Of a DNA stretch of 38,240 bases, positions 18,001 through 21,000 are shown piece after piece (within the stretch, counting starts at the first letter, position 1; each line of letters opens with the position of its first letter). A program made the position numbers. This DNA is from a virus (taxonomy: Duplodnaviria; Heunggongvirae; Uroviricota; Caudoviricetes): IMG/VR virus record IMGVR_UViG_2541047968_000009, positions 1 through 38,240 of that record; one strand, given 5' to 3'.

Positions 18001-21000
18001 TTACATAAAGTTAGGTTAGGCCTGTGGAGCCGGGGAATCGGAATTAAACATCTTCCCTCCCCGGTAAATACAAATAAGGGCTGAACATCATCCCGACTAC
18101 CTCAGATCACCTAATAATATATCAAGATTATTTTGCGCATTAATGCTATTCGCCATTACTGTTGCTGCTTCTGGCAACTTTCCAAGAGCAATAAATATAT
18201 TCTTAAGGCTGATTGGAATTGATGAACCATGCGGATCGCGCCACTCACCGCAAATTCTGTGAGTTTCATCACAAAGCCTGAACGCATCCCAACCTCCATA
18301 TTGACCAAAAATTATGTCCATTGACTCTATTTCTGCGGGCGATAACTCCCCCAGCTCATCAACAGAAGAAAATGTACGCCACATTTCAACCTTATGATCC
18401 GCTACATCAGATATCCATGATTCCCACGGACTGTACTCGTTTTCACTTCCATCCTTAACCAAAGAATATGTCTGCGATAAAACGGGTCCTTTGTTCATAG
18501 AGAAATAATGATCACCACTAATGGGAAAACCATACAACTCCATTGCTTTGCGGTCAGAGAGATACATCAGCTTAATGAAACGCATAGATCCGCCATGTTT
18601 TTTCAGCAAATACGCTGCCATTTACGCAACTTTTTCGGTGATGCTGCCAACTTACTGATTTAGTGTATGATGGTGTTTTTGAGGTGCTCCAGTGGCTTCT
18701 GTTTCTATCAGCTGTCCCTCCTGTTCAGCTACTGACGGGGTGGTGCGTAACGGCAAAAGCACCGCCGGACATCAGCGCTATCTCTGCTCTCACTGCCGTA
18801 AAACATGGCAACTGCAGTTCACTTACACCGCTTCTCAACCCGGTACGCACCAGAAAATCATTGATATGGCCATGAATGGCGTTGGATGCCGGGCAACAGC
18901 CCGCATTATGGGCGTTGGCCTCAACACGATTTTACGTCACTTAAAAAACTCAGGCCGCAGTCGGTAACCTCGCGCATACAGCCGGGCAGTGACGTCATCG
19001 TCTGCGCGGAAATGGACGAACAGTGGGGCTATGTCGGGGCTAAATCGCGCCAGCGCTGGCTGTTTTACGCGTATGACAGTCTCCGGAAGACGGTTGTTGC
19101 GCACGTATTCGGTGAACGCACTATGGCGACGCTGGGGCGTCTTATGAGCCTGCTGTCACCCTTTGACGTGGTGATATGGATGACGGATGGCTGGCCGCTG
19201 TATGAATCCCGCCTGAAGGGAAAGCTGCACGTAATCAGCAAGCGATATACGCAGCGAATTGAGCGGCATAACCTGAATCTGAGGCAGCACCTGGCACGGC
19301 TGGGACGGAAGTCGCTGTCGTTCTCAAAATCGGTGGAGCTGCATGACAAAGTCATCGGGCATTATCTGAACATAAAACACTATCAATAAGTTGGAGTCAT
19401 TACCAACTTTTTCTTCATTAAACATAAATCGGCTCTCTGTCTCACATGAAATACTCTTTCTGACTATATGTTAATAGCTCCGGTTATTACAGGTTAATGT
19501 GTGTTTATTTCTTAATCAGCCCCGCACTTCCGTACGGGGCCATTTCTGTTAATCCACTCCCACTTTTTTGTTGTACTCGCGGTTAAAGCGATCCACGGCA
19601 ACCTTCATATCCCGCTCTACCGATTTCACCATCGCCGCCTGCTGCGCCAGACTGAGAGAACTGTCGGCATAAATGGCATCGCGCTGTTTGCGCAAATCCT
19701 TCAGTCTCTTCCGGGTATCCTGCATAAGCCCGTTCATCAACAATTTTCCGTTGTTCTCGTCAATGAACGCCGTTCTTTCTGCACCGGTCAGACTCTTCAG
19801 CTCTGCGTGATACTGCGCAACCTCTGTCATCCGGTCGTACATCTTCTGCTGGTCTGCATACGGCATCACCTCACCCGAAATTTTCCCCAGGAAGGGCACC
19901 TGCTGCTCCGGTATATCAATACCGTTCAGCGATTTCACCGCCGCATCTGTGGTTTTGGAAATGAAGCGCCCTGTCCCTCCGGAGATATAGTCAATCCAGA
20001 ATTTCAGCGATTCCGGTGTGATATCCACCGCGCCGGGACGATACTGGCTGCCACCTGAGAACGCATTCAGCCAGGATGCAAACGCCTTGTACGCCTCAGG
20101 CGTTGAACGTCTGCCCAGTTGGCTGTCCGGTTTCGGTGTGCCAAATGGCATGTTCTCCTGGTAAATCTGCGCCCCCATGAAGTTTTCATTCATGGCAAGG
20201 TTCGCAAACGGACGCAGAATGGTCGGCGCTGCATTTTTCAGCAATGCCCCGGACAGTGTTTCCGACGTTTCACTGCCCACAGGACTGAATGCCCCCAGGA
20301 TACCACCGACAACATTACCGGCAGCACGTGAAGCAGTCAGGTCGCCCGCTGCCACACCTTCAGCAGTATGCCCGAGCAGGAAGAAAACGTTGTACCCGTA
20401 AGGCAGAGGAATACTCCAGTACTCTCCGGCCTTGCCCCCGAACACCGATTTCATAATGACGAGGTTACGCTCTTTCACATGAGACGGCACCTTGTCATAC
20501 CAGTTAACCCCGTCATCATCCTCCCCCGCAACACTGCGGTTAAGCGAGCCAAGCAGATAACCCGCTCCCACAGCTGCAAGCGCGATTTTCTGCGGTACAT
20601 TGAGATTCTTCCAGCGAAGGCGCTCCGGTAACGGCCCGTCGCCATTAAGATGTCCGAGCGTTCTCACCAGGTTTGCGGTCCCCTGAATGCTGGCGTTGGC
20701 AAACATATACAGCGAGTTCATCAGCGCTCCCTGCTCACCACGACGGTTAAAGTTCACCGTCATGTTTTTGGCAAGAGATGCCGCCTGCTGGCGTGACAAA
20801 CCGGCATCACGGGCGTGTTTATAGGCAGAAAGACGCAGAGCGTTTTCAACCGCGCCGTTGGCATCCTCGACCAGGTTCAGGAACGAATGCCATGCACCGA
20901 TACTCTGGCCTTTCCATCCTCCCTTCGCCAGCGATACAAGGCGATCCATTTCCTTCTGCTGGCCTTCAAGGTCACCCATGTTAAACCAGCCGGTTTTACC

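Follow-up and report, generated by a model that had tools for sequence, protein, structure and literature searches.

The closest described system to the locus analysed here is the PanA-PanT pair of P. moraviensis, a member of the T6 group of Kurata et al. (2022, PNAS; PMC8832971) and an experimentally validated toxin-antitoxin (TA) module for which toxicity, translation inhibition and complex formation have been shown. In T6, the toxin PanT is MazF/PemK-like by HHpred, and the antitoxin gene precedes the toxin gene with a −1/−4 overlap (PMC8832971). Stand-alone Panacea proteins, moreover, can directly neutralise toxins (PMC10440598). Here we examine a damaged locus of this kind in a viral (Caudoviricetes) sequence of 38,240 nucleotides, IMG/VR record IMGVR_UViG_2541047968_000009, whose whole length we call the window, where a complete insertion sequence IS1 stands at the 5′ end of panA, a gene of the Panacea (DUF4065) family. 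We consider it likely that the IS1 inserted recently into an antitoxin gene that was already orphaned and damaged, within a PanAT module that had decayed.

Set against the working P. moraviensis pair, the locus in the window is a remnant: panT is down to six codons, and panA carries a stop at codon 9, a deletion of three codons and the IS1 in codons 5-7. We likened the two families by motif, gene order and taxa. The components are of known kinds, IS1 being a known insertion sequence and the module most probably being of the validated T6 PanAT type, and a public genome already has annotations for the IS1 as well as for the Panacea gene.

IS1 entered the locus by simple insertion

By sequence reading and a repeat finder, we identified a complete IS1 of exactly 768 bp, bounded by imperfect 23-nt terminal inverted repeats at 18637-18659 and 19382-19404 whose arms are 78% complementary. 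The copy is without notable difference from IS1 (IS1A/IS1R) of E. coli, having the same 768 bp, 23-bp inverted repeats starting GGTGATGCTGCC, insA and insB′ with an A6C site, and a 9-bp target duplication. Its A6C frameshift motif is intact at 18943-18949, within TTAAAAAACTC at 18941-18951, and the Prokaryotic Genome Annotation Pipeline (PGAP) annotation of E. coli JNEC-KY204 places an IS1A family transposase with programmed frameshift at the same site. The parts of the insertion are as follows.

18637-19404, plus strand: complete IS1 (IS1A-like), 768 bp, from its length, inverted repeats, Pfam matches and frameshift motif
18692-18967, plus strand: insA, 91 aa (PF03811, E = 1.3e-21; PF12759, E = 4.7e-31; Zn_ribbon_InsA, HTH_Tnp_IS1)
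18886-19389, plus strand: insB′ frame, expressed as InsAB′ via a −1 frameshift (PF03400, DDE_Tnp_IS1, E = 5.9e-78)
18628-18636, no strand: left copy of the target-site duplication, AACTTTTTC, whose minus strand GAA AAA GTT is ancestral panA codons 5-7
19405-19413, no strand: right copy of the target-site duplication, AACTTTTTC, present as a single copy in empty-site relatives

The two 9-bp copies of AACTTTTTC are perfectly identical, and a 9-nt match at these fixed flanking positions would arise by chance with a probability of ~4e-6. When the IS1 and one repeat copy were deleted in silico, the resulting empty site matched nine complete E. coli genomes at 100% identity across 845 nt, and eight further complete E. 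coli genomes carried it uninterrupted at 99.3-99.5% identity. The existence of the exact uninterrupted site in relatives therefore proves that the IS1 entered by simple insertion. A first-pass annotation, made from the sequence of the window alone, had described a complete 768-bp IS1 delivered by simple transposition with a perfect 9-bp target duplication, and had pointed to IS1-free relatives as a means of rebuilding the original junction; the element and its duplication are as described, and the relatives yielded the uninterrupted site with its single nonamer copy.

The insertion lies inside panA, which was already damaged

The product of the residual panA reading frame matches PF13274 (SocA_Panacea, DUF4065) at 70.7 bits against a cut-off of 25.7 (E = 2.5e-19), its residues 16-127 covering profile positions 2-112 of 113, which upholds the DUF4065 assignment of the first-pass annotation. 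That annotation had also placed the insertion 7 bp upstream of the gene's ATG, between the stop of a neighbouring giant gene and the gene's own start. The spacing is correct: counted upstream from the ATG at 18621, the 9-bp target starts at 7 nt and the end of the IS1 lies at 16 nt, with 15 nt between. This ATG, however, is codon 10 of the ancestral gene and not its native start.

With the IS1 removed in silico, the minus strand reads ATG TTT AAT GAA GAA AAA GTT GCG TAA ATG GCA, that is, MFNEEKVA*MAAYLL. On this empty-site reading the start conserved in the family is the ATG at 19425-19423, 27 nt further upstream than the Met10 start, and relatives show a native panA of 186 codons starting MFNEEKVAQMAAYLL, in keeping with the family N-terminus MF[NSC]EEKVAQMAAYLL seen in homolog alignments. 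The IS1 therefore lies inside ancestral codons 5-7, and the placement in an intergenic spacer does not hold. The pieces of the gene are now distributed as follows.

18097-18621, minus strand: residual panA open reading frame (ORF), 174 codons, starting at ancestral Met10 (PF13274; alignments with homologs)
18622-18624, minus strand: TAA nonsense codon at ancestral panA codon 9, which is CAA (Gln) in all intact relatives
19414-19425, minus strand: ancestral panA codons 1-4 (ATG TTT AAT GAA), split from the rest of the gene by the IS1 (reconstruction)

A search with the reconstructed 186-aa protein returned 248 homologs, nearly all of 184-186 aa and covering the query end to end. Across the alignment (n = 42), M1, F2 and A8 are nearly invariant and Q9, K26, L27, K29 and L30 are invariant. 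Codon 9 is CAA in the O104:H4 Shiga toxin 2 (Stx2) prophage, in phage 933W and in strain cM8a; in the window it has been replaced by TAA, and only for that reason does the ATG at 18621 act as a start. Compared with full-length proteins (~185 aa) of the MFxEEKVAQ PanA subfamily, the window allele thus falls short by the stop at Q9 and by the loss of one KLM unit of KLMKL. It holds a single 9-bp AAGCTGATG (KLM) unit, at 18565-18573 on the minus strand, where intact alleles hold two. In an AlphaFold2 model of an intact homolog (mean predicted local distance difference test, pLDDT, 90.7), residues 4-18 form helix 1 and residues 24-42 form helix 2; judged on this model, the window allele would be without ~40% of helix 1 and one turn of helix 2.

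AAGCTGATG is a small, slippage-prone in-frame tandem repeat inside an otherwise invariant motif, and its copy number is one in the window lineage, two in intact alleles and in the O104:H4 and 933W relics, and three in strain cM8a. We also considered the codon-9 stop as a conserved programmed feature, prompted by two homologs annotated from Met10 (contigs L007, 5974-6534, and L008, 3916-4476), and rejected it: their DNA retains the nine upstream codons, CAA included. Gene callers often choose Met10, and the start of the panA family is corrected here. Kurata et al. met the same start-annotation problem and restored MIFSEQKVAQ to the N-terminus of P. moraviensis PanA (PMC8832971).

The toxin gene panT is reduced to a stub

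Outside the 933W group, the panA stop is directly followed in 10/10 loci by a conserved gene of ~133 aa, which overlaps panA by 4 nt or 1 nt or leaves a very short gap. The loci lie in a P2-like prophage of E. coli, a lambdoid prophage of Salmonella, and in Mixta, Yersinia and Photorhabdus. Together with five sister prophages described below, the arrangement of panA followed by the ~133-aa gene holds in 15/15 intact loci. In the phage collection, panA and panT stand side by side in 9/9 genomes with a full-length panA outside the window lineage, and the only full-length panA there without a partner is that of phage PhiR5_2, which belongs to the window lineage. The downstream partner gene is left uncalled in several genomes (contigs L007, L009 and L012-L014).

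The identity of the partner came from fold comparison only. The partner protein had no match in Pfam, NCBIfam or PADLOC, a profile search against PDB sequences was equally empty, and a single-sequence search recovered just four homologs, so that a profile search was needed for more. A confident model of the ~133-aa product has the MazF/Kid/CcdB toxin fold, from which we assign the partner gene as a predicted MazF-fold toxin gene, panT. The intact E. coli protein (P0152) starts MMFTPYRRGTILAPSG.

In the window, the alignment to the sister contig L035 breaks 18 nt into panT, and codons 7-133 are deleted. What remains is the following.

18074-18091, minus strand: panT stub of six codons (MMFSPY), delimited by the break in the window-L035 alignment
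18025-18069, minus strand: remnant of a GC-rich inverted repeat, joined directly to the panT stub and aligning to L035 5422-5481

In intact L035 this inverted repeat follows the panT stop (5402). The first-pass annotation had noted that no toxin-sized ORF adjoins the Panacea gene, and indeed none is found in the 88 nt that separate the panA stop from the stop of the convergent ibrB. Its suggestion of an orphan or an inactivated module is likewise borne out by the six-codon panT stub and by the nonsense codon and KLM loss in panA. It had also advised looking for a distant or split partner: tblastn found no PanT match elsewhere in the window, and the partner was instead traced to the stub in place and to intact panT genes in sister prophages.

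A further contig with the window-type panA and stub, L025 (IMGVR_UViG_2563366825_000011), diverges from the window right after the post-panT inverted repeat, from ~4600 onward, and this repeat appears to be a mosaic module boundary.

Related prophages keep the pair intact or have lost it by other routes

P0152 is encoded in five E. coli contigs (L035-L039, e.g. GCA_018131805.1). All five show the order giant LPD gene, panA (186 aa), panT (133 aa), convergent ibrB and ibrA, antirepressor, ynfG fragment and ynfF. These sister prophages share with the window the 933W-like type, the position and the ynfG/ynfF site, with 93.7% identity over the end of the giant gene and panA. They differ from it in having Q9 and KLMKLM intact in every panA, a panT of the full 133 aa, no IS1, and ~280 additional nt that include a 148-bp repeat of the giant-gene 3′ end. 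In L035, two direct repeats of ~148 bp (4195-4341 and 5542-5689; 92.6% identical) bracket panA-panT. Each corresponds to the giant-gene 3′ end with its hairpin, and the window has the first copy only, at ~19519-19665. The repeats look like the footprint of a cassette insertion and would permit clean loss by homologous recombination.

Two other Shiga toxin (Stx) phage types carry the same locus in different states of ruin. In the O104:H4 Stx2 prophage, where the locus is annotated as a 91-aa hypothetical protein, a single deletion fuses panA at about codon 41 to post-panT sequence. In phage 933W, downstream of L0134, internal deletions have removed the cores of both panA and panT. Both relics keep CAA at codon 9 and lack the IS1. 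The 933W gene L0135 (contig L004, 3734-3922) retains the first 11 residues and the C-terminal helices of PanT (hhalign probability 97.4%, E = 1.5e-11), and an unannotated, internally deleted panA relic lies between L0135 and L0134, up to ~4075 of L004.

Among complete E. coli genomes, the 933W-type relic occurs in ~100 and the window type in 18, and the matches listed among the rest are of the O104 type. None of the ~425 complete genomes with the locus has an intact panA-panT pair; full-length panA occurs in just 18 of them, always as the damaged window type. A megablast search of complete E. coli genomes found no intermediate states, and scans of IMG/VR returned only the damaged window allele or 933W-type relics. 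Every locus that keeps the toxin has an intact antitoxin, and every damaged antitoxin accompanies a destroyed toxin. Read from these sequences, panAT decayed along three or more separate routes, each of which took away the toxin core. A true addiction module would be expected to leave just such a pattern, in which the toxin is never kept without an intact antitoxin, and the pattern provides indirect evidence that the ancestral panA-panT pair was active.

The IS1 insertion is recent and came last

The IS1 is absent from 17/18 complete E. coli genomes with the window-type panA allele, as well as from phage PhiR5_2 and four IMG/VR contigs. Among the complete E. coli genomes searched, the only one to carry this IS1 between the same flanks is JNEC-KY204. 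The three lesions, namely the TAA at codon 9, the single KLM unit and the panT stub, were read directly in six IS1-free loci of the window lineage and in the four IMG/VR contigs, and are implied by 100% identity in eight more genomes. Every IS1-free member of the window lineage thus already has all three lesions, and the IS1 therefore came last. Across 4017-36500 the window and JNEC-KY204 differ at six positions, two of them inside the IS1.

The distribution of the element argues that the insertion is recent and inherited within a small clone, and is neither old nor fixed. This agrees with the first-pass annotation, which had called the transposition probably recent. It had also named, as the sign of an old, fixed insertion, related elements with the same IS1 and the same flanks. 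JNEC-KY204 is such an element, but the 17 IS1-free genomes show that the insertion is not fixed.

A model for the decay of the module

We propose that a type II TA module of two genes, a stand-alone Panacea antitoxin (panA) and a MazF-fold toxin (panT), lies here in ruins; it would be accessory cargo of the prophage, placed directly after the giant polyvalent-protein gene and close to the prophage's right end. In the window lineage, the sequence shows panT deleted to six codons and panA with the nonsense codon and without three codons of the invariant helix motif. The loss of panT presumably came first or together with the panA damage, because this is the only viable order for an addiction module; with panT gone, panA would have had nothing to neutralise and hence could drift. 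The IS1 then transposed into ancestral codons 5-7, and the residual ORF was thereby cut off from the start codon and the ribosome-binding region it once had and from all transcription arriving from upstream. From the arrangement of these parts we infer that the IS1 silenced the remnant; most likely the remnant is silent now and the event had no phenotypic consequence, because the gene was already orphaned and damaged. On this account the insertion was probably neutral.

The direct consequence of the event would be small, IS1 insertions being routine and the gene hit being most likely dead. More broadly, the comparison identifies remains of a PanA/MazF-fold PanT module in the ‘hypothetical’ genes that lie downstream of the giant gene in 933W, in O104:H4 and in related Stx phages, and together the loci provide a natural series of one TA module decaying along separate routes.

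Alternative explanations

Some observations weigh against the reading of a neutral insertion into a dead gene of the T6 type. The 174-codon ORF is still open and keeps its strong Panacea match, and the sequence TAAATG could permit termination-reinitiation in IS1-free genomes, giving a protein that would lack nine residues only. The damaged allele is fixed in a widespread lineage, with 99.3-100% conservation across PhiR5_2 and the 18 complete genomes, which come from several continents, and the lineage has also been obtained as a phage isolate (PhiR5_2, recorded host MG1655); this fits neutrality and is also compatible with retained function. The pN/pS ratio of the window panA against an intact allele, 0.33 from small numbers, is below 1 and so not fully neutral. 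Each of these would suit a functional orphan antitoxin, a shortened PanA kept by the phage as a sensor or to neutralise the T6-type PanT of other resident elements, in which case the IS1 would be a real loss-of-function or regulatory event. Suitable targets exist, since E. coli has other PanAT loci of the same subfamily (PanA 70% identical, between a replication gene A homolog and the portal gene of a P2-like prophage), and the direct neutralisation reported for stand-alone Panacea proteins (PMC10440598) is in keeping with such a role. We nevertheless hold this to be unlikely: the invariant Gln9 codon is now a stop, the invariant KLMKL motif has lost three residues, Met10 has no evident Shine-Dalgarno sequence ahead of it, and the same gene has been destroyed outright in sister Stx-phage lineages. 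High conservation would be expected anyway in so young a lineage, and within it two panA alleles differ by four nonsynonymous and 0-1 synonymous changes, which, like the pN/pS of 0.33, agrees with relaxed constraint on panA. A more specific version, which we regard as quite improbable, is that 933W-like phages repeatedly discarded the toxin and here kept the antitoxin as a counter-defence gene, the truncated PanA being a phage-borne antidote against the T6-type PanT of resident prophages or against PanAT-based abortive infection. If that were true, the IS1 insertion would be a natural knockout with a measurable host or phage phenotype.

The effect of the IS1 on expression and the singularity of the event can be questioned as well. 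The left inverted repeat of the IS1 (IRL) abuts the panA remnant, and insAB transcription is directed away from it. PMC9330008 (citing Prentki 1986, Goussard 1991 and Olliver 2005) documents that IS1 ends create fusion promoters when the flank supplies a suitably spaced −10. The IRL does carry an outward-facing TTGGCA, 8 nt from the IS1 tip, so activation of the 174-codon ORF deserves mention, whether by read-out transcription or by a fusion promoter whose −35 would lie at the left end of the IS1. We rejected the fusion promoter on geometry. The hexamers 16-18 nt downstream of TTGGCA (TGCGTA, GCGTAA, CGTAAA) match TATAAT at ≤3/6 positions and offer no acceptable −10, and with the ATG only 15 nt from the tip the start site would fall at or beyond it, leaving no leader or ribosome-binding site. 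A consensus promoter scan found the inward insA promoter only, with no minus-strand promoter toward the remnant, and IS1 insertions are polar in both orientations in classical genetics. Activation is thus very improbable; the change in expression that the first-pass annotation had thought possible is plausible as silencing, which would be unlikely to matter. A further point against a single clonal event is that the IS1 copies of the window and JNEC-KY204 differ at 2/768 positions (window 18643 and 19080, IS1 positions 7 and 444, one of them within the IRL), although the ~32 kb around the IS1 differ at just four. Two independent insertions at a hotspot could account for this, the target being A/T-rich and IS1 tending toward A/T-rich targets, but both strains show the identical 9-bp duplication, the identical orientation and near-identical flanks, and no further insertion occurs at this site among 22 related loci. 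We give such a coincidence very little weight. The two differences most simply fit gene conversion among IS1 copies or assembly error, such as polishing errors in multicopy repeats, either of which is simpler than a second insertion. Finally, the placement of the window-type panA/panT family in the T6 cluster of Kurata et al. is probable, yet the link is indirect and was made on the N-terminal motif (MIFSEQKVAQ), taxa, accession adjacency and gene order with its −1/−4 overlap. Genera listed in T6 (Pluralibacter, Proteus, Halomonas) recur among the matches we found, and the Pluralibacter T6 toxin WP_048253752.1 is numerically adjacent to the PanA homolog WP_048253753.1.

Prophage setting

The region belongs to a 933W-like (Sepvirinae) prophage that is inserted in E. 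coli at ynfG/ynfF, and it makes up the right end of that prophage. The genes that flank the panA locus are the following.

19549-27912, minus strand: giant polyvalent virion-type protein, 2787 aa, homolog of 933W L0134 (Pfam LPD38, LPD5, LPD1, MuF_C)
17364-18008, plus strand: ibrB (weak Pfam ParB_N; RefSeq and PhiR5_2 annotation)
16153-17379, plus strand: ibrA (Pfam PAPS_reduct/DUF3440; RefSeq and PhiR5_2 annotation)

A hairpin at 19519-19540 follows the stop codon of the giant gene. On the chromosomal side, the prophage adjoins ynfE and ynfF (~9343-14253), followed by a truncated 4Fe-4S (ynfG) fragment at ~14260-14350, and the prophage appears to interrupt ynfG. An Rfam scan gave nothing in or near the panA/IS1 locus; in the antirepressor region, at the prophage-chromosome junction, it placed two sRNA-Xcc1 (RF02221) matches above the gathering score, at 14664-14752 and 15201-15286 on the plus strand (69 and 73 bits).

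The middle 33.5 kb of the window is 99.8% identical to JNEC-KY204, and window positions 1-4016 and 37522-38240 have no alignment to it; the window therefore derives from a near relation of JNEC-KY204 and not from JNEC-KY204 itself. About 45 mismatches to that genome are grouped at 36546-37348, in the tail-fibre/adhesin region. The divergent ends and the mismatch cluster suggest that the flanking content is specific to the strain and that the distal tail gene is a mosaic. JNEC-KY204 also has an annotated Hok/Gef family toxin gene (contig L002, 33111-33251), collinear with ~31190-31330 on the minus strand of the window, among late and accessory genes; it would be a second, type I, TA locus of the same prophage.

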